From NCBI GenBank assembly GCA_047602425.1, contig JASGHG010000001.1, positions 2,592,001 to 2,656,000 on the forward strand: a stretch of 64,000 nucleotides of DNA, read 5' to 3'. Both the position numbers and the translations under genes were made by a program. Below are positions 3,862 to 63,961 of the stretch, one piece after another (position 1 is the stretch's first letter; each line of letters begins with the position of its first letter). Source of the stretch: Nibricoccus sp. (GTDB lineage Bacteria; Verrucomicrobiota; Verrucomicrobiia; Opitutales; Opitutaceae). The notes beneath the pieces were generated by a model. It saw only the letters and a program-made list of their open reading frames with translations, did not search any database and had not been told where the DNA came from.

Positions 3862-5181
3862 ATGTCCAACGTCGTCCCCATGATCGAAGCCCTTCGCTCG
3901 CAGGTCCGCAGCCTGCCGGCGGTGCGCCGTCTCGGTCACGTCACGGGCATCACCGGCCTGATCATTGAGTCGGAAGGTCCCAATGTCGGACTGGGCGAAC
4001 TCTGCAAACTCAGTTCGGAACGCGATAATTTTTCCGTGACAGCCGAAGTCGTCGGTTTCCGCGGCGAGCATGTTTTGCTGATGCCGCTCGGCGAAACAAC
4101 GGGCCTCCACGCCGGCTGCGAAGTGGCCGCTGCCGACCGTCCGCCGTTGCCGCAGATTGGCCCGCGCCTGCTCGGTCGCGTGCTCGACGCCATGGGCAAG
4201 CCTTACGATGGACTCGGGCTGCTGCCCACCGCGCGCCTTGAACATGGTTCGGCCAAGCCCCCGCATCCGTTGCGGCGCCAGCGCATCCGCGATGCTTTTG
4301 CCACGGGCGTGCGTTCAATTGACTCATTCATTCCATTCGGTCGTGGACAACGTTTGGGCCTTTTCGCCGGTTCAGGCGTTGGTAAGTCCACGCTTATGGG
4401 CATGATCGCCCGAGGCGCTGAAGCTGACGTCGTCGTGATCGCACTCGTGGGCGAACGTGGCCGAGAAGTCCGCGAGTTCATCGAAAAGGATTTGGGCCCC
4501 GAGGGTCTTTCCCGCTCGATCGTGGTTGTGGCGACCAGCGATACGCCCGCTCCGCTTCGCCTGCGCGCCGCCTTTACCGCGACCTCCATTGCCGAGGCTT
4601 ATCGCGACGAAGGTAAAAATGTTCTGCTCCTCATGGACTCGGTCACGCGTTTTGCCATGGCGCAACGCGAGATCGGCCTCGCCGTTGGCGAACCGCCGGC
4701 CACGCGCGGTTACACGCCTTCGGTTTTTGCGCTCCTCCCTCGTTTGCTCGAACGTTCGGGCGCGGGCGAGACCGGTTCCATCACCGCGCTCTACACAGTG
4801 CTTGTCGAAGGCGATGACATGAACGAACCCGTGGCGGACGCCGTCCGCGGTATTCTCGACGGACACATTGTGCTCTCTCGCGCCTTGGCCCACGCTAACC
4901 ATTATCCAGCGGTCGACGTGCTTGAGAGCATCAGCCGTCTCAATCGCGATGTCTGCTCCCCGGAGGAACTCGATCTCGTTGCCCGTGCCCGCGAGCACCT
5001 CGCGGTTTACCGCAAGAACGAGGATCTCGTTACCATTGGCGCCTACCAGAAAGGCACCAACGCCCAGCTTGATCGCGCCGTGGCGCTTTACGAACCATTG
5101 AAAAATTTCCTGCGCCAGAGCGTCCAGGACCGCGTGCCGCGCGCCGATTGCTTCAACCATTTGAAAAAGATCTTGTCATGA
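3862..5181 (+). CDS. fliI: Flagellar export ATPase FliI
   Basis: Walker A AGSGVGKS, GERGRE, LLLMDSVTRFAMAQREIG, GEPP..RGY. Confidence 0.97.
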   Translation: MSNVVPMIEALRSQVRSLPAVRRLGHVTGITGLIIESEGPNVGLGELCKLSSERDNFSVTAEVVGFRGEHVLLMPLGETTGLHAGCEVAAADRPPLPQIGPRLLGRVLDAMGKPYDGLGLLPTARLEHGSAKPPHPLRRQRIRDAFATGVRSIDSFIPFGRGQRLGLFAGSGVGKSTLMGMIARGAEADVVVIALVGERGREVREFIEKDLGPEGLSRSIVVVATSDTPAPLRLRAAFTATSIAEAYRDEGKNVLLLMDSVTRFAMAQREIGLAVGEPPATRGYTPSVFALLPRLLERSGAGETGSITALYTVLVEGDDMNEPVADAVRGILDGHIVLSRALAHANHYPAVDVLESISRLNRDVCSPEELDLVARAREHLAVYRKNEDLVTIGAYQKGTNAQLDRAVALYEPLKNFLRQSVQDRVPRADCFNHLKKILS

Positions 5182-5633
5182 AAAAGTTCCGTTTTCCTCT
5201 TCGCTCTGTCGCCACCGTTCGCTCGCTGCGTGAACTGCGCGCCCGCGAACATTTTTCCGTGGCCGTGCATGCCTACGTCACCGCCGGGGAGCACCTGCAG
5301 GTTCTGCGTGCACGGCTGGCGGCTTTGGAAGAGGTGTTGCGCAACGGACGCATCCAGACTTTCCGGGCGGGCGACGAGGCCTCGTTCCTTGAAGCCTACA
5401 AAACCGAAACAATCGCCGCCACCAAGGCCGCGGTCGAGGTCGAAAAAACCCGGGCCCAGATGGAAGCCGCGCGCCAGGCCTGGCTCGGTTCGCGTCGTGA
5501 TTTGAAGGTGGTTGAAAGTCTTGAACAAAAAGCCCGCGCCACCCACCGGCGCGAGGTCGAGCGCGAGGACCAGGCGGCCCTCGATGACCGTACCAGCGCC
5601 CTCGCCGCGCGCGCCGCCGCCCAAGGCCTATGA
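5178..5633 (+). CDS. fliJ: Flagellar export protein FliJ
   Basis: MKKFRFPL..V...R start, coiled coil, EQ/DQ..LDD end; ATGA overlap with fliI. Confidence 0.88.
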   Translation: MKKFRFPLRSVATVRSLRELRAREHFSVAVHAYVTAGEHLQVLRARLAALEEVLRNGRIQTFRAGDEASFLEAYKTETIAATKAAVEVEKTRAQMEAARQAWLGSRRDLKVVESLEQKARATHRREVEREDQAALDDRTSALAARAAAQGL

Positions 5634-6241
5634 TCAAACTTCTCACCAACCCCATTGTCACACTGGTTGTCGCGCTCGTGCTCGGCGTGGGCACGGGATT
5701 GAGCATGTTCATGCAGGCCGCGAAACCTTTAATCGCCGCGACCAAACTCGCCCGCGTGAAAGCTGCCGCCGCCAAGGAACCCGAAGCTCCCTGGGGATTC
5801 TGGACGCTTGAGATCGAAAATCTTGCCAGCGAACTCAAGGACCAGAAAGCCGTCGTTAAAAAATACGAGGAGTCGCTCAAGTTGCGCGAGGAACGGCTCA
5901 ATGCCGAACGACAGGAACTCGCCAAACAACGCGACCAGCTCGAGGCCATGCGCGCCGATATCGCCGGCCGCATTACTTCCATCCAGGCCGACGAAATCAA
6001 AAACCTGAAATCGCTCGTGGCCACCTACAGCAATCTCACGCCGAAAGCCACGCTCACCATTTTCAAGGAGATGGACGACACCATGGTCGTCAAAATCCTC
6101 TCGCTCATGAAAACCGACGTCACCACGCCGCTTTTCGAAGAAATGAGCAAGCAGGCCGCCACCGATCCCGTCGTTGCCCGCCGCGTGGCCACCCTCACCG
6201 AAAGACTTCGCCTCCTCAAAACCAGCCCCACGACACCCTGA
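5630..6241 (+). CDS. MotE/FlbB/YlxF-like flagellar protein (N-terminal TM, coiled coil, MgtE-N-like domain)
   Basis: LVATYSNLTPKATLTIFKEMDD..VVKILSLMK pattern; position after fliJ as in Firmicutes/spirochaetes. Confidence 0.75.
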   Translation: MIKLLTNPIVTLVVALVLGVGTGLSMFMQAAKPLIAATKLARVKAAAAKEPEAPWGFWTLEIENLASELKDQKAVVKKYEESLKLREERLNAERQELAKQRDQLEAMRADIAGRITSIQADEIKNLKSLVATYSNLTPKATLTIFKEMDDTMVVKILSLMKTDVTTPLFEEMSKQAATDPVVARRVATLTERLRLLKTSPTTP

Positions 6242-6277
6242 TTTTCGCACCGGCGTTGACGCGCCGAAACCTTTAGA

Positions 6278-6322
6278 CCCGCACCAAGGAAGGTGTGGGA
6301 AACTCCGACCCAAGGAAGGGTC
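6278..6322 (+). promoter_or_regulatory. Two hairpins with AAGGAA loops (CsrA-like sites) in the fliK leader
   Basis: CCCGCACC-AAGGAA-GGTGTGGG (6278-6299) and GACCC-AAGGAA-GGGTC (6307-6322), 8 nt before ATG 6331. Confidence 0.7.
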
Positions 6323-6330
6323 CTTTAAAA

Positions 6331-7896
6331 ATGACTCTTCCTCCCAATTGCCTTCCTCCCGAAAATGCCGCTCTGTCCGGCGACCTTCTCGCCGGCCTCG
6401 GCCAGCCAGCGGGCGCGACTGAAGCCGCCGACGGCACTCCCTTTGCCACGCTCCTCGCGGATGCCGCGCCCGGCGAAAACGCCAACCAACCAGCGGGCGA
6501 GCCTGCACGCGCGGCCGGAGGTCCCGCGGTGGCCCTGTATTCGGGAATTTGCTACAGCAATGTCCTTCAGACGGCGACGGGCGAGGCGACCGAGGCTGCC
6601 ATTGACTCAGTGCCGGAGGATGAAGAACCGGTTTTGCCTCCCGACGTTGATCCCGCGCCATCGGAAGAAAGTGCTTTGCTGCTCGCTTACCAACTCATCG
6701 CAGGCCAATGGGTGCCGCAGCCGGTCTCGCTTCAAGCCGAACCAGCTCTTACGACTGCCGCAGCCGCCCGTGCGGGCGACGAAGCCGTTTCGGTGAACCA
6801 GGGTGACGGATTTGCCGCACAGCCGGGTGAAGCGCCCGTGGCCGAGCCGACCTCGGGGATTGCCCCGGCGAAGGTTGACCCCGCTGCATCGGCCAACGCG
6901 CTTGTTTTCAAAGAGGCAAAGTCGGCGACGACGACTGACAAAATCATGGCTGCTTCCAATACCCCCACGCGGACCCAAGCAACCGAACAAAAATCCGAGT
7001 CAACTCCTTCACGCTCCGAGCCTGCAGCGACGCCTTCTGACAATGTAATTTCCCCATGTTCCGTCCCTGAGGCGGCATCTTCAAATGGCATGACCAACGT
7101 CGTCTCGGAACTGCCGCGCCCGATAAATAATCTACCGGCAAAATTTACCGCTCCCGGTTCTGACCCCCGTGCAGAAGATGCCTCTGGGGTGAATTCCTTA
7201 AGTAGCTCAGCAGAAAAAAAGACGTTAGTCGCTGATGCAAAAGGTGTAAAGTCAGCTGGTCGTCAGATTGGCACGAACGTTGCAAACCGGGGGTACTCCA
7301 TGCCCTATTCTGCCGCCAACAAGTCCAGCGCACCGTCCACCACGGCGCTTTCGCAGGCACTTCCAGCTGGCGGCGTGCAAAGCGGCAGCAGCTCCGCGGC
7401 GATCGAGATCGAAGCGCCGTCTTCGGTTCACGCTCCGCGTCTCGTTCAGGAAATTCGTGCGATCGCCGACCGGATTTCGACCATCGATCGCAACACCGTC
7501 GAGGTCCGTTTCGATTTTAACGAGTCCGACCGCCTTTCCGTCCGCGTCGAATATCGAGACGGCGCGGTGCACACAACTTTCCGCACCGACTCTGAGTCGT
7601 TGCGCGAAGTGATCGCCCGCGAATGGCAGGCGCAGGCCGTTTCCGCCGAGCCGCGCGCCTACCGCGTTGCCGAACCTGTATTTAGCAACAACGTCGCGAC
7701 TTCCGGCGACCTTTCGCAGTCCGGCCAGGGCTCCAGCCAGTCGCAAGGCCGCGCTTTCGAGCAGCAGGCCGCCCCGACTTTTAACGGGCTCGCCCAACAA
7801 GGGCGTTCCTCCTCCGGCGCTTCCTTCGGTGCTCCCAGCTCCGCGGCGGCGACGGTTCGTCCCGAAACCTCCCTCCACCTCCACACGTTCGCCTGA
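6331..7896 (+). CDS. fliK: Flagellar hook-length control protein FliK-like
   Basis: Long low-complexity Ala/Pro/Ser/Thr region, C-terminal FliK_C-like domain (LSVRVEYRDGAVHTTFRTDSESLRE), Gln/Ser-rich tail; directly upstream of flgD. Confidence 0.82.
   Translation: MTLPPNCLPPENAALSGDLLAGLGQPAGATEAADGTPFATLLADAAPGENANQPAGEPARAAGGPAVALYSGICYSNVLQTATGEATEAAIDSVPEDEEPVLPPDVDPAPSEESALLLAYQLIAGQWVPQPVSLQAEPALTTAAAARAGDEAVSVNQGDGFAAQPGEAPVAEPTSGIAPAKVDPAASANALVFKEAKSATTTDKIMAASNTPTRTQATEQKSESTPSRSEPAATPSDNVISPCSVPEAASSNGMTNVVSELPRPINNLPAKFTAPGSDPRAEDASGVNSLSSSAEKKTLVADAKGVKSAGRQIGTNVANRGYSMPYSAANKSSAPSTTALSQALPAGGVQSGSSSAAIEIEAPSSVHAPRLVQEIRAIADRISTIDRNTVEVRFDFNESDRLSVRVEYRDGAVHTTFRTDSESLREVIAREWQAQAVSAEPRAYRVAEPVFSNNVATSGDLSQSGQGSSQSQGRAFEQQAAPTFNGLAQQGRSSSGASFGAPSSAAATVRPETSLHLHTFA
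7268..7284 (+). promoter_or_regulatory. Sigma54 (-24/-12) promoter inside fliK
   Basis: TTGGCACGAACGTTGCA matches TGGCACG-N4-TTGC(W) exactly; predicted +1 near 7295; in-frame ATG at 7300. Confidence 0.75.
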
Positions 7897-7907
7897 GGAT
7901 CTCCACC

Positions 7908-8339
7908 ATGTCTTCCGTCACTGCCACTTCCTCCTCTTCTTCGGCTTATACCGACAATCTTTCGGCCCGCGTCGCCCAGAAAAGTCTCGGGCAAAGCGAT
8001 TTTCTCAAACTGCTGACCACGCAGATGAGCAATCAGGACCCGATGAATCCCATCTCGGACACCGACCAGATCGCGCAGCTCGCCCAGTTTTCCGCCTTGC
8101 AATCGATGAATTCCGTCGCCTCGGAACTCGCCTATCTGCGCGCCGACACCCAGCTCCAGGGCGCCAGCGGCCTGATCGGACGGCAGGTCACCGTGACCAC
8201 GAGCAAGGGTAATGTCGTCGGCACGGTCGACTCGGTTCAGGCCGACTCCAGCCACGTCTACGTCAATGTCGGCGGGCAGCAGTACGATTATTCCAAGATC
8301 ATCAAAGTCGAACCAAAGCCAACCGCCACGACTCCCTAA
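7908..8339 (+). CDS. flgD: Flagellar hook capping protein FlgD (short form)
   Basis: LGQSDFLKLLTTQMSNQDPMNP...IAQLAQFSAL. Confidence 0.96.
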   Translation: MSSVTATSSSSSAYTDNLSARVAQKSLGQSDFLKLLTTQMSNQDPMNPISDTDQIAQLAQFSALQSMNSVASELAYLRADTQLQGASGLIGRQVTVTTSKGNVVGTVDSVQADSSHVYVNVGGQQYDYSKIIKVEPKPTATTP

Positions 8340-8397
8340 ACTTTCAAGGACGAAACCAACCCCAAACGTAAACCGGCTCATTTAATCATCTCCAACC

Positions 8398-9267
8398 ATG
8401 TCACTCATCGGAACACTCACTTCAGGCGTCAGCGCGATGCGCGCCTTCACCAAGGGACTCGAAGTCATCGGCAACAACATCGCCAACGTCAACACGGTCG
8501 CCTACAAAGGTTCCACCGTCAGTTTTGCCGACAGCTTCAGTAACACCTTGCGCTCCTCGGCTCCTTCGTCCGCCACCTCTTCCAATCAATCCGCCACCCA
8601 AGTCGGCACGGGCGTGCGCCTTTCTGAGATCAGCACCAAATTCACGCAGGGCGCGCTGACCACCACCGGTCTCAATACCGATCTCGGCGTTTCCGGCAAC
8701 GGCTTTTTCCTCGTGTCGAATCCGGCCGATGGCCAGCTCTTCGCCACTCGTGCCGGCAACTTCCGCATCGACGACAGCGGCTACCTCGTCACTTACCAAG
8801 GCTATCGCGTGCAAGGCGCCACGGGCGGCACCGCGGCCACGCCTCCTTCCGCTTTTGGCAGCATCCGCCTCGGCACTCCGCCGGCCGGCACCGAACTCAC
8901 TTCTTTCAGTATCAGCACCGCCGGCAACCTCACCGAGTTCTACTCCGATGGTACGTCCATCACCACGAATCAGGTGCTCCTCCAGAATTACTCCGATCTC
9001 AGCGCTCTCGTGAAACAAGGTGACAATCTTTACACCGGCTTCAGCGCCGCCGGTATCATCGGGCCTGCCACACCAACTCCTGCCGGCAACGCTCCCGCGG
9101 GCAGCGGCCTCGGCTCCATTCAGGCCGGCACGCTCGAACTCGCCAACGTCGATCTCACCGATCAGTTCGCGAACATGATCACCACCCAGCGTAGCTTCCA
9201 GGCCAGCTCCCGTTTGATCACCGTCTCCGACTCCGTGCTCGAGGACATCGTCAACTTGAAGCGCTAA
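8398..9267 (+). CDS. flgE: Flagellar hook protein FlgE (short, 289 aa)
   Basis: VIGNNIANVNT.AYK, GNGFF, TRAGNF, LELANVDL...MITTQRSFQASSR; follows flgD. Confidence 0.88.
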   Translation: MSLIGTLTSGVSAMRAFTKGLEVIGNNIANVNTVAYKGSTVSFADSFSNTLRSSAPSSATSSNQSATQVGTGVRLSEISTKFTQGALTTTGLNTDLGVSGNGFFLVSNPADGQLFATRAGNFRIDDSGYLVTYQGYRVQGATGGTAATPPSAFGSIRLGTPPAGTELTSFSISTAGNLTEFYSDGTSITTNQVLLQNYSDLSALVKQGDNLYTGFSAAGIIGPATPTPAGNAPAGSGLGSIQAGTLELANVDLTDQFANMITTQRSFQASSRLITVSDSVLEDIVNLKR

Positions 9268-9298
9268 CCCGCCTCGCGGCTGAACCCCACGCCCTTCC

Positions 9299-9952
9299 AT
9301 GGCTGCAAAACCAAACGAACCCGCCAAAGGCGCCGACGCCGCCCATCCGCCTGCCGCAGCCGCGGCGGCCGACAAGGACAAGGGCGCGGCCCCCGAGGCC
9401 GCCGCCAAGCCCGCTGGCGGTGGTGGCTTTGCTGCATTTATTCCGCTCATTGCCGCGATCGTCATCGCTCCAGTTCTTTCCTGGGCCGTCGGCCAGTTTG
9501 TGCTCATGCCCAAGCTCAAGAAAGAGCTCGCCGTTCCGGTCGATCCGCACGCAATCGCTCCGGCCGAACATGTGGCTGAAGAAGCTTCTGCTGGCGAAGG
9601 CGGCAAAGAGGAAAAAGGCGGACACGGCAAAAAGGGCGAGGCTGGCGCTAACGGCGCTACCTACGAATTTGAAAATGTGGTCGTGAATCTCGCCGGCACC
9701 ATGGGTACGCGTTACCTCAAGACCGCGTTCCTTGTCACCGGGACGGAAAAATCCCTTCGCGCCACCTTCGAGAACAACAAGCCGAAGATGGTCGATGTTA
9801 CCATCAACGTTCTCTCTTCGCTCTCGCTCGCCGATCTCGAGGAGGCCGGCGCCAAGAACCTTATTCGGGAAAAACTGATCGGCGCCTATAATCAGGCCCT
9901 CGGCAAGAAACTCGTCGAGCAGGTCTATTTTTCCGACTTCGTCGTGCAGTGA
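9299..9952 (+). CDS. fliL: Flagellar basal body protein FliL
   Basis: Single TM, VVNLA, C-terminal VYFSDFVVQ. Confidence 0.93.
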   Translation: MAAKPNEPAKGADAAHPPAAAAAADKDKGAAPEAAAKPAGGGGFAAFIPLIAAIVIAPVLSWAVGQFVLMPKLKKELAVPVDPHAIAPAEHVAEEASAGEGGKEEKGGHGKKGEAGANGATYEFENVVVNLAGTMGTRYLKTAFLVTGTEKSLRATFENNKPKMVDVTINVLSSLSLADLEEAGAKNLIREKLIGAYNQALGKKLVEQVYFSDFVVQ

Positions 9953-13978: not shown

Positions 13979-16900
13979 TTAGAACTTGCCACTAATGCCT
14001 GCCGTCCAGAGGGCGCCGAATTTAGCCCGGCGAGTGATAACATTTGAGCTGATCGAATAGGTCGTCAAAGGTTCATTGAAGATATTGCGACCGTTCGCGA
14101 ACAGCGTCAGTTTTTTAGTCAGGGCATAGCCCACGCTGATATCTATCATGGTGCGCTGACGTGAGAAGTTAACTATTCCAGCATTCGCTGCACCATTGTT
14201 GATGATGAGGCCTTTATCATCAAGGAGGGCAGAGTCTCTATGATACCCTGTGCGGTTGACTGCAAAACGAGCGCTGAATTTCTTGTATGCGTAGTTCAGA
14301 CCTCCGTTGCTTATATCTTTTGCAGAACCCAGATAATTATCCCAGCTGTCGTAGATCAGATGTGTATGGTTAGCGAACAGGCTCAAACCCGACAGCGCGC
14401 CGGGAAGGAATGAGAGCGATTGGTTGTAATTTAGTTCAAAACCCGAGTTATGGGCTTTGGCGACGTTGTCCCAGACGTTAAAAAGAGAACCCGGGGGCGC
14501 TCCTGTTTGGTAATTCGTGTTACCTACAAGTAGAAACCCATTTGGATCAACATAGTGAGGCTTGCGTCTCTGCAGGTCCTTGATGTCTGTGCGGAAGACA
14601 CTGAAGGCGACGCTGCTATTTTGATTTTTACCGAAGTAGTATTCGATGTCCCAGTTAACGCTTCGAGCATACTCTGGACGAAGGTCTGGATTATTGACGT
14701 TGCCAGTTGCAGTGGGCGGAACGGCAGTTTCGTTTGATATCGTATAGCCCGGGAACATATTAGCAAAATCGGGTCGGGTGATCGAATCGTGGTAGGAGGC
14801 ACGGGTAAGCAGATTGGGCGTTATCTGGTAATTTAGGTGTAGGTATTTGAACAGGTCGCTGTAAGTGGTACCTGCCGCGCTGCGATTGCCGCCGTAACGG
14901 GCCAGAACATAGGGGTAGAATGCAGGAGTTGTTGCACCTGGTGCAGCTGTGGTCGGAGCATTGCCGAGATTGATCTGAGCCTGTCGATTGCCGATGTCCA
15001 ACGGACCTTTGCCGCGGGTGCGTGTCGCTTCAAAGCGAACGCCCGGGGCGACCGAGAATCTCCCGATCTTCCAGATGGTTTGGAGATACGCCGCGTTGAC
15101 CTGCTCGCTCACGTTTGTCGTGTTTTGGAGCAAGGTTTGCATCAACTGCACGTCATTGCGCCCTGTGAACCAATCAGGATGGTCACGCATGGTTTGAGCG
15201 AGGCCCCAACGGTCCAAGTTTGTTAGACCATTTGCATTGGTTCCCATGTCGAAATTCATCCGGTAGTAAGGCTCACCGAAGGGCGCAGCATTGTCGTCGG
15301 CAGTATTGGCGACATGGTCTGGTCCAACAAAAGTGTAGGACTCGTTGTTCTTCCGGAGATAGACATTGTGAGCCAACTCGTTCACGGAGAAACCCCACTT
15401 CACTGTGACTGGGTACTTTAAGACGAAGGGATAACGGAAATTCAATTGGGCACTGTATCTCTCATCATCAGACGCCCTGTCGTTCGAAAGCACAGTGTTA
15501 ACCCGATAGTTACTGAGATTTTGCCAGTTGTTACCTGCTAGTTGGGTGAATTGCACACCTGTATCATCGGGCCCAGCGCGATTGAACCGGAATTGGCTGC
15601 CAGTCAAATTAGTAGTTCCTGCAGCCCAGAGGAAACCGTCGGGGAGATCTGAATACCAGTTTGTCGCTCGCGAGAATTGGGCTTGGGCATCTATTTTCAG
15701 AGCACCTACAGTGTATTCACCATATGTCGTCCAAGTGAATGTCGCGCCGTGTTTGTTGGTCGCCCCGCCGCCTTGATTGAAGCTTGTATTGACGTAGGTT
15801 CCAGTTCCTTGGGTGGCCACGGTCTGCGAGGTTTGCGAATTCCATGAGTACTCGACCGATGGATCGACCGCACCTGTCGGGGAATTGATAGTTCCTTGGC
15901 CAGCTCCTGTGCCTGCCATATTTATGCTGATATCGCGGCTATAAAAGCGGGCCTCGTATGTATTGTAATCAACGCGGGTGTAGATCCAAGCATTTGGACT
16001 GAATTTGTAGTCGATACGGGCATTGTAGTTGATGCGTGTACTGACTTTCGGCGAATCACGGAAGCCGAAGCTTGTGACGATCGGAACCTCAGTGTCATTG
16101 TTAAAAGCATTCGAGTCCCATCGGTAACCGACTGTTTCCGCTTTTTGTTCAGCAAAAGTTTTGGAATAAGTTACGCCAGCTTGAATACCCAGTTTTCCTG
16201 CGATCAAGACGTCCGCATAGGAAAGGCTGAAGTTGGGCATGACTTTACGGTTGCGGCCGTTGTCTGGTCCGGGGGAATTCTGGAACCAGTCATAGCTATT
16301 GAGGGCCATGCTGGCCCCAAAATTGATGCGGCGGCCTTTGCTGTCGAAGGCGCCTTTGCTACGCAGATTGACCACGCCAGCTACTGCGCTGGCCTGCTGA
16401 TCAGGGGTGGGGGTTTTGGAGAGCTCCACGGTTTCGATACTGGCGATAGAGAGCTGTTCGAATTCAAACGCGCGGCCCGTACCTACGTTTGAAGAACCTG
16501 CGCTTGCAACGGGAGCACCATCCATAAGGACAACTGTGTATTTCGGGTTCATACCGCGAATGCGGATCTGGCGTGCGTCCGCTTCGGTGTAATCGATCGC
16601 GACGCCTGACATGCGTTTCAAAAACTCACCGGCGTTACCTTCAGAGACATCGCCAAAGGCGTCGGCTGCGATGACTTGCTTCATATTGACCGCATTGCGT
16701 TGTTCCTGGAGAGCCTTGGCATTACCTTCCCTTTCGCCAGACACCACGAACTGATCGAGGAGGATAGCATCTTTATTGTAGTCGGAATTGGTAAGGTTGA
16801 AATCTTTGGTGGTAGTTCCGCCAGCTGTGACTGTGACGGTCTGTTCCAAGGTATCGAGTCCGGCGAACTCGGCCTTGATTTTGACTTCACCTGCCGGGAC

Positions 16901-17149
16901 GTTGAGCAGGCGGAAGTTACCGCCGGCTTCTGCAACGGCGGTGATGTTCGTGCCTTCGACGGAAACGACGGCGTTGCGGAGGTAGTCGCCGGTGCCGGCG
17001 TTCATGACGCGGCCGGTGACAGTTCCAGTGCCGGCGGATTGGGCTTGGACTGCGATGGGGAGCAGGCCGATAACGATGGCGAGCCAGGCAAACAGCGGGC
17101 TCAACCAGCGAAACCGGTGCGATTGCGATAGTGACTTGTTGGAGGTCAT
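13979..17149 (-). CDS. TonB-dependent receptor with N-terminal carboxypeptidase-like regulatory domain
   Basis: Signal peptide from MTSNK; G.VTGRV..; plug (IRIRGM...IETVELSKTPTPD...AGVVNL); NPDLRPE; NIFNE; C-terminal Phe. Confidence 0.93.
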   Translation of the reverse strand: MTSNKSLSQSHRFRWLSPLFAWLAIVIGLLPIAVQAQSAGTGTVTGRVMNAGTGDYLRNAVVSVEGTNITAVAEAGGNFRLLNVPAGEVKIKAEFAGLDTLEQTVTVTAGGTTTKDFNLTNSDYNKDAILLDQFVVSGEREGNAKALQEQRNAVNMKQVIAADAFGDVSEGNAGEFLKRMSGVAIDYTEADARQIRIRGMNPKYTVVLMDGAPVASAGSSNVGTGRAFEFEQLSIASIETVELSKTPTPDQQASAVAGVVNLRSKGAFDSKGRRINFGASMALNSYDWFQNSPGPDNGRNRKVMPNFSLSYADVLIAGKLGIQAGVTYSKTFAEQKAETVGYRWDSNAFNNDTEVPIVTSFGFRDSPKVSTRINYNARIDYKFSPNAWIYTRVDYNTYEARFYSRDISINMAGTGAGQGTINSPTGAVDPSVEYSWNSQTSQTVATQGTGTYVNTSFNQGGGATNKHGATFTWTTYGEYTVGALKIDAQAQFSRATNWYSDLPDGFLWAAGTTNLTGSQFRFNRAGPDDTGVQFTQLAGNNWQNLSNYRVNTVLSNDRASDDERYSAQLNFRYPFVLKYPVTVKWGFSVNELAHNVYLRKNNESYTFVGPDHVANTADDNAAPFGEPYYRMNFDMGTNANGLTNLDRWGLAQTMRDHPDWFTGRNDVQLMQTLLQNTTNVSEQVNAAYLQTIWKIGRFSVAPGVRFEATRTRGKGPLDIGNRQAQINLGNAPTTAAPGATTPAFYPYVLARYGGNRSAAGTTYSDLFKYLHLNYQITPNLLTRASYHDSITRPDFANMFPGYTISNETAVPPTATGNVNNPDLRPEYARSVNWDIEYYFGKNQNSSVAFSVFRTDIKDLQRRKPHYVDPNGFLLVGNTNYQTGAPPGSLFNVWDNVAKAHNSGFELNYNQSLSFLPGALSGLSLFANHTHLIYDSWDNYLGSAKDISNGGLNYAYKKFSARFAVNRTGYHRDSALLDDKGLIINNGAANAGIVNFSRQRTMIDISVGYALTKKLTLFANGRNIFNEPLTTYSISSNVITRRAKFGALWTAGISGKF

Positions 17150-17552
17150 ATGGCTTTCAGGGTTCGTTGTTGGGTTGGTGGAGGGAAAAGGTCGCGGCGG
17201 AGGTCCGCGCGAAATCACGGCTCGGCTGTCAGGCATCTCGCGCCTGATACAACGAGTTTTTGAGGGCAATTTTGTCCTGCAAGGGGTAGTTAGGGAAAGG
17301 CGCACAAAGGTCTTCGTGGGGGAAAGACAGTTGCGGCGAGCTGGTTTGTTGGGGAACGGAGCGTAACCAAGAGGTCTTTGGGGAAGGGTCTTGGCGATGT
17401 TCAAATTACTCTTACAGTAAGAAATGTCAGCGGATGTCTGTCTCCATTTCCGGTTTTCTATCCGAAAATTGAATACGCGGACTGCTCTTCGGGCGGCAGG
17501 TGCAGTTGATTTCGGAAAGTTATTTCCGGGACTACCCTGAAAGACGGCCGGC

Positions 17553-58715: not shown

Positions 58716-60464
58716 ATGCCATCTACCCGCCATCTCCGCTTTCCCACTCAAGCCGCTTTTGCGGTATGTGCGGTTGCTGCGATGATTTGGGCCAACCGGA
58801 ACGAGGTTACCCCGACAACAAGTAGTGCACGCCATGCGGTGGCGCGCCCCGTCACATTGGCAGGGAAGCGCGGAAATGTGGCAGCCGCGGCGGCGGCCCA
58901 ACCGGCGCTTCATTCGCAAGCCTTCGCGCCCACGCAGGTCGCGCCGACAAAGGTTACAGCCTCGGTCAGCCAAATTTTGCCGGAGCTTGCGCAGGAAATT
59001 TCCGATTGGCGTGCTTACCGGCCGCAGAAACTCACCATCGCGCCGCACGCCGATTTGGCGATGGATTTTGAAATGACCGCGGTACGCCAGGAAAACGGTC
59101 GCACGATCTGGCAGGGCCGCAACGCATTGACGGGCGCCTTCCTCGTTACCGTTGCGACGGAAAATGACTGGCACGCGATCCTGGAGATTCCCGCGGCTAG
59201 CAGTTTTGAATTTCACATTACCGGTCAGACCGCGTCGGTGACGGAAAAATACGAAATTGGCGCTTGCGGCGCGCACCGACATTTGGGCAGTGCCGATCTT
59301 GCTCAACACACGGTGGTGCTCTCGCCAGATCCGAATTCCGTTTCCGCGGGCACTGATGGCCCTCCAAACGGTGCGGTGGCGAACGTCGACGTCCTCTTCT
59401 TTTTCGACGAGGCCACTTTTGCGGCAAATGGACGCAACTACGCAGCGATCGAAACAGCGATTGAGGCCCGTGTGGAATCAGCCAACTTGGTTTTGGAAAA
59501 CAGCCGCGTGAAGAATTTTCGCTGGCACTATGTTGCGGCGTATCAGGTGCCCGAATACACCGCGACCGGAAAGCTCAAGGACGATTTGAACGCCGTCACC
59601 TTCACGGATAACCCCGCGGGCCAGTTCGTGAACGACAAATGCGCCCTGCACGGAGTTGACCAAGCGGTGGTATTTGTGTCGGGCGCCCGCGATTACGCGG
59701 GTATTGCCTGGGTGCCAAGCGGTGACGATTCGCTTGCGCACAACGCAGCGGTGATTTGGGACAGCAACTACACAGTGCTCGCGCATGAACTCGCGCACAA
59801 TTTTGGCTGTCATCACGACCGCTCCACGGAAAATGCACCCTCGGACGACGGGAAACCTTCTTATGGCTTCCGTTTCGATCTGAACGGCGCCGACACGGGC
59901 ACCGTCATGTCTTATGCGCCGAACCGCGTGCCATATTTTAGCAATCCCGACGTGAGTTATCATGACATCAAGCTGGGTGTGGCCGAAGGCCAGCCTGGCG
60001 CGGCGGACAACGCCCACATTCTCGCTGAAAAAGCCGATATGATGACGGCGCACCGTGAGCTGAGCTCATTGCCCATCATCATCATGCAACCTCAGTCCAC
60101 GACGGTGGTGCGCGGCGCAAGCCTCAATCTCTCCGTTTCCGCTGCGGGCGAAGGCCTCGCTTATCAGTGGCGCAAGAACGGCCAGGCCATCGGTGGTGCG
60201 ACCAATGCCGTGTACTCGAAATCCAGCACGGGCGACGAGGATATTGGTTCTTACGATGTGATCGTTGCCAACGATGCCGGCAGCGCCGCCAGCCGGACTG
60301 CAGCCGTGGCAGTGACAACTCCTTCGACGCAAGTCTCAGTTTCGGCCCAAACCAACAGTCAGGGGCAATCTGGCGATGGTGGCGGCGGTGCCCCAAGCGA
60401 TTGGTTCCTCGCCGCGTTGGCGATACTGGGTGTTGTGCGCGTCCTTCGCCGCCTGACGGCGTAA
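58716..60464 (+). CDS. Reprolysin/M12B-like zinc metalloprotease with Ig domain and GlyGly-CTERM-like tail
   Basis: CG cysteine-switch-like motif, HELAHNFGCHH, Met-turn TVMSY, QP.S....G....LSV.A.G..L.YQWRKNG Ig domain, GGGGAPSDWFL + TM + RR. Confidence 0.88.
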   Translation: MPSTRHLRFPTQAAFAVCAVAAMIWANRNEVTPTTSSARHAVARPVTLAGKRGNVAAAAAAQPALHSQAFAPTQVAPTKVTASVSQILPELAQEISDWRAYRPQKLTIAPHADLAMDFEMTAVRQENGRTIWQGRNALTGAFLVTVATENDWHAILEIPAASSFEFHITGQTASVTEKYEIGACGAHRHLGSADLAQHTVVLSPDPNSVSAGTDGPPNGAVANVDVLFFFDEATFAANGRNYAAIETAIEARVESANLVLENSRVKNFRWHYVAAYQVPEYTATGKLKDDLNAVTFTDNPAGQFVNDKCALHGVDQAVVFVSGARDYAGIAWVPSGDDSLAHNAAVIWDSNYTVLAHELAHNFGCHHDRSTENAPSDDGKPSYGFRFDLNGADTGTVMSYAPNRVPYFSNPDVSYHDIKLGVAEGQPGAADNAHILAEKADMMTAHRELSSLPIIIMQPQSTTVVRGASLNLSVSAAGEGLAYQWRKNGQAIGGATNAVYSKSSTGDEDIGSYDVIVANDAGSAASRTAAVAVTTPSTQVSVSAQTNSQGQSGDGGGGAPSDWFLAALAILGVVRVLRRLTA

Positions 60465-63945: not shown

Positions 63946-63961
63946 GCATTGCCCGTGCCAA
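63946..63961 (-). promoter_or_regulatory. Sigma54 (-24/-12) promoter
   Basis: Minus strand TTGGCACGGGCAATGC(T): GG/GC spacing correct, one mismatch to TTGC. Confidence 0.62.

Follow-up and report, generated by a model that had tools for sequence, protein, structure and literature searches.

A probable sigma54 promoter inside the ruler-coding part of fliK in Opitutales and the switch-only FliK form that it is predicted to yield

The window analyzed here, a stretch of 64,000 nucleotides from a Nibricoccus genome, carries a flagellar operon in which the ruler-coding part of fliK reads at the same time as a complete sigma54 promoter, with enhancer, A/T block and -24/-12 box at fixed spacing inside the coding frame. 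The box is followed by an in-frame ATG, and it is likely that the promoter works and that a short form of FliK, with the switch domain and no ruler, is made from it. The locus has the following features.

5178-5630, fliJ (Pfam FliJ).
5630..6241, + strand, FlbB/YlxF-like gene after fliJ, with an MgtE_N-like C-terminal part (NCBIfam collar_FlbB E 8e-11, under the cut-off; Pfam MgtE_N weak).
6278..6322, + strand, a pair of CsrA-type sites in the long-fliK leader, each a hairpin with an AAGGAA loop (CCANGGANGG).
6331..7896, + strand, long form of fliK, 521 aa: export signal, low-complexity ruler, T3S4 domain, tail.
6442..6456, + strand, FATLL, residues 38-42, an export-motif-like sequence of the long form only, resembling a gate-recognition motif.
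7136..7150, + strand, palindromic enhancer CGGCAAAATTTACCG (consensus SGGMAAAWWTTGCCG), a likely activator site, inside the coding frame.
7213..7249, + strand, A/T block within the coding frame, phased at ~10 nt and likely a site of DNA bending (IHF/HU-type).
7268..7284, + strand, sigma54 -24/-12 promoter box, with a predicted transcription start near 7295.
7300..7896, + strand, predicted short FliK form, 198 aa, with a nearly leaderless ATG that is Met324 of the long form.
7432..7686, + strand, T3S4 (FliK-C) switch domain, short-form residues 45-129, from the predicted structure.
7908..8339, + strand, flgD, hook cap (Pfam FlgD E 7e-20); 11 nt separate the fliK stop and the flgD start.
8398..9267, + strand, flgE, short hook protein, 289 aa (NCBIfam FlgE/FlgG models).

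After flgE the operon continues with fliL, fliM, fliN, fliO, fliP, fliQ and fliR, named by our reading of the translations, and neither a sigma70-type promoter nor a terminator-like site on the + strand was found in 5600-9400. The FlgE protein (8398-9267) has 289 aa only, and its top NCBIfam score is to a FlgG-named model of 263 positions. Beyond fliR lies a large ORF on the - strand (13979-17404), which by its translation resembles a TonB-dependent receptor, and flhB and the remaining flagellar genes are found ~59 kb beyond that ORF. The host genome contains rpoN, on which the first-pass annotation had made its claim of a sigma54 promoter depend, together with twelve strong sigma54-activator domains, one HU/IHF-family gene, and the csrA, fliW and Rho genes.

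The box that the first-pass annotation had placed inside fliK, TTGGCACGAACGTTGCA at 7268-7284, indeed encodes I-G-T-N-V-A in the fliK frame, and the spacing of its -24 GG and -12 GC fits a sigma54-dependent promoter. The A/T-richer stretch noted upstream of it is also present, its A+T being 0.52 (7120-7260), as compared with 0.37 in the part of the gene before it and 0.36 in the part after it. Counting from the GC at -13/-12 puts the ATG at 7300 at +6, which corresponds to a 5-nt leader, as had been estimated. Within the host genome alone, motif counts show no excess over chance. With at most one mismatch, the window holds 6 matches to the sigma54 motif for 5.26 expected, and TGGCAC-N5-TTGC occurs 18 times genome-wide as compared with 4-16 times for seven wrong spacers; the box at 7268-7284 is the sole perfect TGGCACG-N4-TTGCW in 5.16 Mb. 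Such single-genome counts are not taken as support; the case for the promoter rests on conservation in relatives. Two other sites in the window bear some likeness to the box: a good sigma54-like box at 63946-63960 on the - strand, which is without the flagellar enhancer, and a TGGCAC-N4-TTGC match at 59523-59536 on the + strand, in which the spacing is wrong.

FlgD was detected in 188 of 301 family genomes searched, and 100 flgD loci were hand-picked for genus spread and distance from contig ends, 93 from the same family, the Opitutaceae (a count that includes the host genome), and 7 from elsewhere in the order. The box lies in frame in fliK with an ATG 12, 15 or 18 nt behind it in 94 of the 100 loci. 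A script found the box and in-frame ATG in 89 loci (85 at 15 nt, 4 at 12 nt), and inspection of the 11 that it missed added five (four at 15 nt, one at 18 nt). Of the remaining six, one is cut by a contig end; in G025 and G014, which belong to the same family, box, enhancer and A/T block all follow the fliK stop and the short form is not made; and in three from other families the promoter is absent, one of them having a box before fliK. Among 19 further loci from other families, the box with an in-frame ATG is present in 10 (weak in 3); 3 carry the box only, with no ATG within 24 nt and in one case without any Met before the domain, and 6 have no box. The fliK-internal promoter is order-wide. 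All of these loci share one ancestry, and therefore the 94 are not 94 independent cases; the counts show persistence rather than independent origins. A strict box inside the ORF upstream of flgD was found in none of 28 loci from other phyla (L043 excluded, its match being at a contig end), a weak test because many of these taxa may lack sigma54 use for flagella.

Conservation at the DNA level, which had been suggested as a check on the motif, is confirmed by synonymous-site bias. In a DNA-blind test, flgD defined the frame and nothing but the peptide G-x3-A-x4/5-M the site; this anchor is found in 92 of 96 long ORFs and gives 109 matches, chance ones among them. Across these 109 matches, the third position before Gly is T in 95 (23.7 expected) and that before Ala is T in 80 (23.6 expected), the Gly codon is GGC in 99 against a background of 47%, and the Ala codon is GCA or GCT in 89 against a background of 25%. 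The retention of rare synonymous codons indicates that selection acts on the DNA. A protein motif of the form G-T/I-x-x-A-x5-M, whose sigma54 likeness is a side effect or chance, would agree with the chance-level motif count in one genome, but it accounts neither for the strong synonymous-site bias nor for an enhancer held in common with intergenic flagellar promoters, nor for G025 and G014, in which the same three elements stand outside the coding frame. We consider it very improbable.

The palindrome, which we take to resemble the Caulobacter ftr element, is found 112-136 nt before the box in 89/89 loci and in 0-5/89 in five control windows, as counted with a matrix that was trained on the same fliK-internal sites. 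The A/T block occupies a fixed position at -56 to -20 from the box and shows an excess at third codon positions; A is present at -42 in 83/89 loci (12 expected), T at -36 in 71 of 89 (16.5 expected), and A or T at -21 in 86 of 89 (26.8 expected). The same enhancer element precedes flgB in relatives. When the enhancer and box matrices, trained solely on the fliK-internal sites, are applied together to the 155 candidate boxes of the genome, the five highest ranks go to flgB, the fliK-internal site, fliA, flgF and flhB, where flhB is an NCBIfam match and the names flgB, fliA and flgF are our own reading. The flgB promoter of the host lies 932 nt ahead of the window (G000:C1:2591068) and again combines this enhancer with the box. 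In 30/30 relatives (L169-L198) the predicted leader of flgB is ~1-7 nt, as in a nearly leaderless sigma54 regulon. A candidate master activator lies elsewhere in the genome.

G000:C1:2195089-2196621, + strand, response-regulator type sigma54 activator (L235).

This gene is present in 42 of 44 FlgB-positive and 2 of 17 FlgB-negative genomes, and we infer that its product binds the palindrome. An activator-like gene beside csrA (G000:2686392-2687927) was set aside, its best match being RtcR. The first-pass annotation had further proposed an internal sigma54 tier for flgD, flgE, fliL and the genes beyond. As to the promoter this is strongly supported, with enhancer and A/T block added to the box; the word tier needs one qualification. 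The operon itself starts at flgB from the same kind of promoter, and the fliK-internal site is therefore a second entry point of the same tier. With these elements in place, we have little doubt that transcription starts from the fliK-internal promoter.

The region in which these elements lie is coding. A reading in which the upstream 970 nt are non-coding and the short ORF is the sole FliK was rejected, as 96 of 100 loci have an ORF of at least 250 codons ending at flgD. In 87 of 89 loci the long frame runs without a stop from close to the upstream gene as far as the box, the exceptions being G029 and G224 with one frameshift each, and in the 60 nt before the box the other two frames contain stops in 77/89 and 83/89 loci. 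The part upstream of the short form varies from 169 to 714 codons among relatives. An F-x-x-hydrophobic-hydrophobic motif occurs in 72/89 long N-termini (110 aa) and in 2/89 short ones (about 45 aa); the gate-recognition motif of Salmonella FlgD is described as 36-FLTLL-40 (PMC8983047).

The CsrA-like leader that had been noted for full-length fliK is real and is conserved in 64 of 89 loci. In the host, CANGGANG motifs, of a kind described for CsrA (PMC4894983), stand in hairpin loops beside the long fliK start; at least one CsrA-type hairpin site is found in the 64 loci and two or more in 47, as compared with at least one in 6 of 89 control windows. The 25 loci without such hairpins keep the promoter, and most of them start right behind the upstream stop. 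The tandem CCANGGANGG pair is found in 2 places in the whole genome, the other one (G000:C1:663549, - strand) being within a chemoreceptor-like ORF and probably due to chance. GGA motifs in a flagellin leader belong to the described CsrA-FliW system (PMC4894983), and four flagellin leaders in the host genome also bear GGA motifs. In this genome fliW-csrA is followed by a divergent flagellin-like gene whose leader is without GGA, and the four further flagellin genes, with GGA-rich leaders, are located away from fliW-csrA (regions G000:C1:2682775-2684388 and 2789585-2793463). Judged by its hairpins, the long fliK start is probably under CsrA control.

An in-frame ATG at 7300 begins a 198-aa ORF that contains the whole switch domain, as the first-pass annotation had it. 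The distance of this codon from the box matches that seen at flgB, whose start is beyond doubt: there the first codon follows the box by 11-17 nt in 30/30 loci and in any phase, whereas inside fliK the gap is a multiple of three in every case. A start-context model was built from 629 gene starts and 5047 internal ATGs of the host genome. The promoter-linked ATGs score a median of 2.6 (90% above zero) and gene starts 2.7, whereas the 514 other in-frame fliK ATGs have a median of -2.6 with 22% above zero. A Shine-Dalgarno core (AGGAG/GGAGG) is present at just 2% of the 629 gene starts, so the lack of a ribosome site at 7300 is normal here; gene starts in the host are G-poor, with C at -1. It is conceivable that the promoter is real and the ATG unused as a start, Met324 being kept for the long protein, which would suit the 3/19 distant loci that have a box without an ATG at that spacing. 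The Met is invariant amid variable neighboring residues, however, its context scores as a gene start, and the spacing matches that of true starts, and we regard an unused ATG as quite unlikely. Met accounts for 1.3% of FliK residues. Given the promoter, translation from 7300 is very likely, and the short isoform that was predicted earlier is supported by position, start context and frame. In the databases, one of four short forms looked up is identical to RefSeq WP_157772385.1 ('hypothetical protein', 210 aa), a gene-caller output, and the FliK on record for the host genome, also a gene-caller output, is the long form only.

In the predicted structure of the short form, residues 45-129 make up a confidently modeled domain of alpha-beta-beta-beta-alpha-beta order, and the ends are disordered. 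Its top fold match is FliK-C (2RRL; Z 8.4, rmsd 6.3, 97 aligned), followed by PscP (5CUK; Z 8.1, rmsd 3.5, 89 aligned), and the next row has Z 6.3. Foldseek with this model returned none at E 0.001 or better, the best being 1.6e-3, and 2RRL and 5CUK were again on top. By sequence, a search of solved structures with alignment A1 returned a designed protein alone (E 0.59), Pfam PF02120 matches weakly, scoring 13.6 and 16.1 bits where the cut-off is 29.8, and NCBIfam gave no match for FliK. Across the loci, short forms range from 160 to 550 aa (median 202), and a median of 68 aa precede the first strand. In the host, the 44 aa before the domain contain no export motif and are not a ruler; they are 18-43% identical to those of close relatives, that is, not conserved. 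L142 and L159 (G017, G094) and L131 and L143 (G230, G084) have short forms of 425-550 aa, with 290-414 aa before the domain, a part that could be a spacer of ruler length. In the clade of L115, L119, L133, L135, L160 and L161, a WKGWTN-like motif is conserved and the N-terminal part is longer (about 117 aa). A separate T3S4-only gene was absent in 5/5 genomes searched, and G025 and G014 hold no second T3S4 gene. Since G025 and G014 do not make the short form and some distant box loci have no ATG, the short protein is dispensable in some lineages.

We propose that the ruler-coding part of fliK would serve also as a sigma54 promoter, and that the flagellar enhancer-binding activator, which would act at flgB, flhB, fliA and flgF as well, would start a second transcript near 7295 carrying flgD, flgE and fliL-fliR. 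The long operon from flgB would supply little secreted ruler and the internal promoter much FlgD and FlgE, and hook cap and hook subunits would be abundant without raising the long ruler, whose start CsrA probably damps. From an ATG ~5 nt from the 5' end of the transcript, as is usual for the regulon, a 198-aa FliK without export signal or ruler would be translated. This translation would shield the first 600 nt with ribosomes and hand them to flgD 11 nt past the stop. The short form is most likely cytoplasmic, and may flip the FlhB switch as a second trigger, with low affinity and in a concentration-dependent way, its production keeping pace with that of FlgE. In Salmonella, the FlgE:FliK ratio is reported to affect hook length (10.1101/2020.03.25.007062), and the export-deficient FliK(delta2-99) is described as still switching if over-expressed and as not cross-linking to FlhB-C (PMC6972891). 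A non-secreted 212-aa HpaC is described as switching an injectisome (PMC2427183). It has also been argued that, in Salmonella, FliK must pause in the course of secretion for the switch to occur (PMC13344023). By analogy with export-deficient FliK and HpaC, a switch role for the short protein is plausible, if short of probable. More tentatively still, we suggest a two-form FliK in Opitutales, in which a scarce, CsrA-damped ruler would be joined by an abundant cytoplasmic form that would increase together with FlgE and flip or prime FlhB, a length-independent timer beside it.

It is only in this last step that another explanation departs, according to which promoter and start are real and the short protein is a by-product of translation from 7300 that just averts Rho polarity and feeds ribosomes to flgD. 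Rho is present, Shine-Dalgarno use is almost nil, and in most loci the fliK stop is within about 50 nt of flgD. The lineages with the promoter behind fliK, in which neither a short form nor a gene replacing it is present, also favor a by-product, as do the 44 N-terminal aa that are not conserved. It is harder to reconcile with the low-complexity tail (median 73 aa), which could hold the ~165-nt element, yet 0/94 loci place the element there, and with the short form keeping the whole domain at a 10-90% length of 184-243 aa, against 271-580 for the upstream part. Shared ancestry could also explain both the position of the element and the narrow length of the short form, and the by-product explanation comes out as nearly evenly balanced. 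The short protein might also be a guard that occupies the export gate, is itself not exported, and keeps the long ruler from switching too early, while hooks are still short. A guard would be made with FlgE during hook growth, and the early mode of Salmonella is described as needing inhibitory locks (PMC13344023); however, engineered export-deficient FliK and HpaC are both reported to promote the switch, the short form bears no inhibitory sequence feature, and the domain is identical in both forms. A guard therefore appears unlikely.

The arrangement proposed here, a promoter within the ruler codons and a switch-only form, combines parts that are known: enhancer-IHF-sigma54 hook promoters, internal flagellar promoters, T3S4-only proteins and two-product type III genes. 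In Caulobacter crescentus, the sigma54 promoter at fliK and the hook operon, served by FlbD, ftr enhancers and IHF, is described as an enhancer, a bending site and a -24/-12 box that drive hook genes (PMC3096577, PMC3930126), and the enhancer, A/T block and box found here are of similar layout. There it is reported as the fliK promoter, whereas in the present genome these elements all fall within the fliK frame, at ~800-970 nt, and would split the gene into two forms. The flagellar cluster of Pseudomonas putida is described as having internal sigma54 promoters too, some within coding sequences, and a second FliK-C-domain protein, fliK2 (10.1101/2021.08.29.457346). In the accessible part of that preprint those promoters serve the next gene and a truncated product is not described, and FliK2 is a separate FliA-dependent gene, whereas one T3S4 gene is present here. 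HpaC of Xanthomonas and HpaP of Ralstonia are, like the short form, ~200 aa with a T3S4 domain and no ruler, and are described as non-secreted; for HpaC, binding to the FlhB homologue and a switch of substrates are described (PMC2427183), and the short form resembles it in size and predicted domain. As described, both have their own genes in injectisome clusters and no long ruler form, whereas the short form is nested in a flagellar fliK. Salmonella FliK(delta2-99) is reported to be export-deficient, to switch when abundant and to give filaments on long, variable hooks (PMC6972891); it is an engineered protein of 306 aa tested without full-length FliK, whereas the natural form here is predicted beside the full-length one. 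A further likeness is to SpaO, a different component from FliK. Translation of the short SpaO form starts at an internal ribosome site within the one mRNA, whereas the short FliK would come from its own regulated promoter. The long and short SpaO isoforms, from the injectisome sorting platform, are described as two in-frame products of one type III secretion gene (PMC13059759). Sigma54 control of Opitutia motility has been noted in a paper whose main text, as far as accessible, is without fliK or flgD (PMC12316311), and the literature searched, chiefly open-access and main texts, held no paper on a promoter inside fliK or on a natural short FliK. A promoter written into the FliK ruler that would yield a switch-only form was thus not found in this literature.

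It is still debated by what means FliK links the measurement of length to the secretion switch, and if it has to be in transit to switch. A switch-only FliK kept beside the ruler across many genera would provide a natural test, in which one codon change separates the two forms. The 165 nt of regulatory DNA, comprising enhancer, likely bending site, promoter and start, are a clear case of such elements within coding sequence, and they outline a flagellar sigma54 regulon of the Opitutales with its enhancer motif, a candidate activator and leaders of 1-10 nt. The two predicted starts would also explain the differing lengths of such proteins in databases. If true, the two-form FliK would represent a natural ruler plus timer for hook-length control in one gene.
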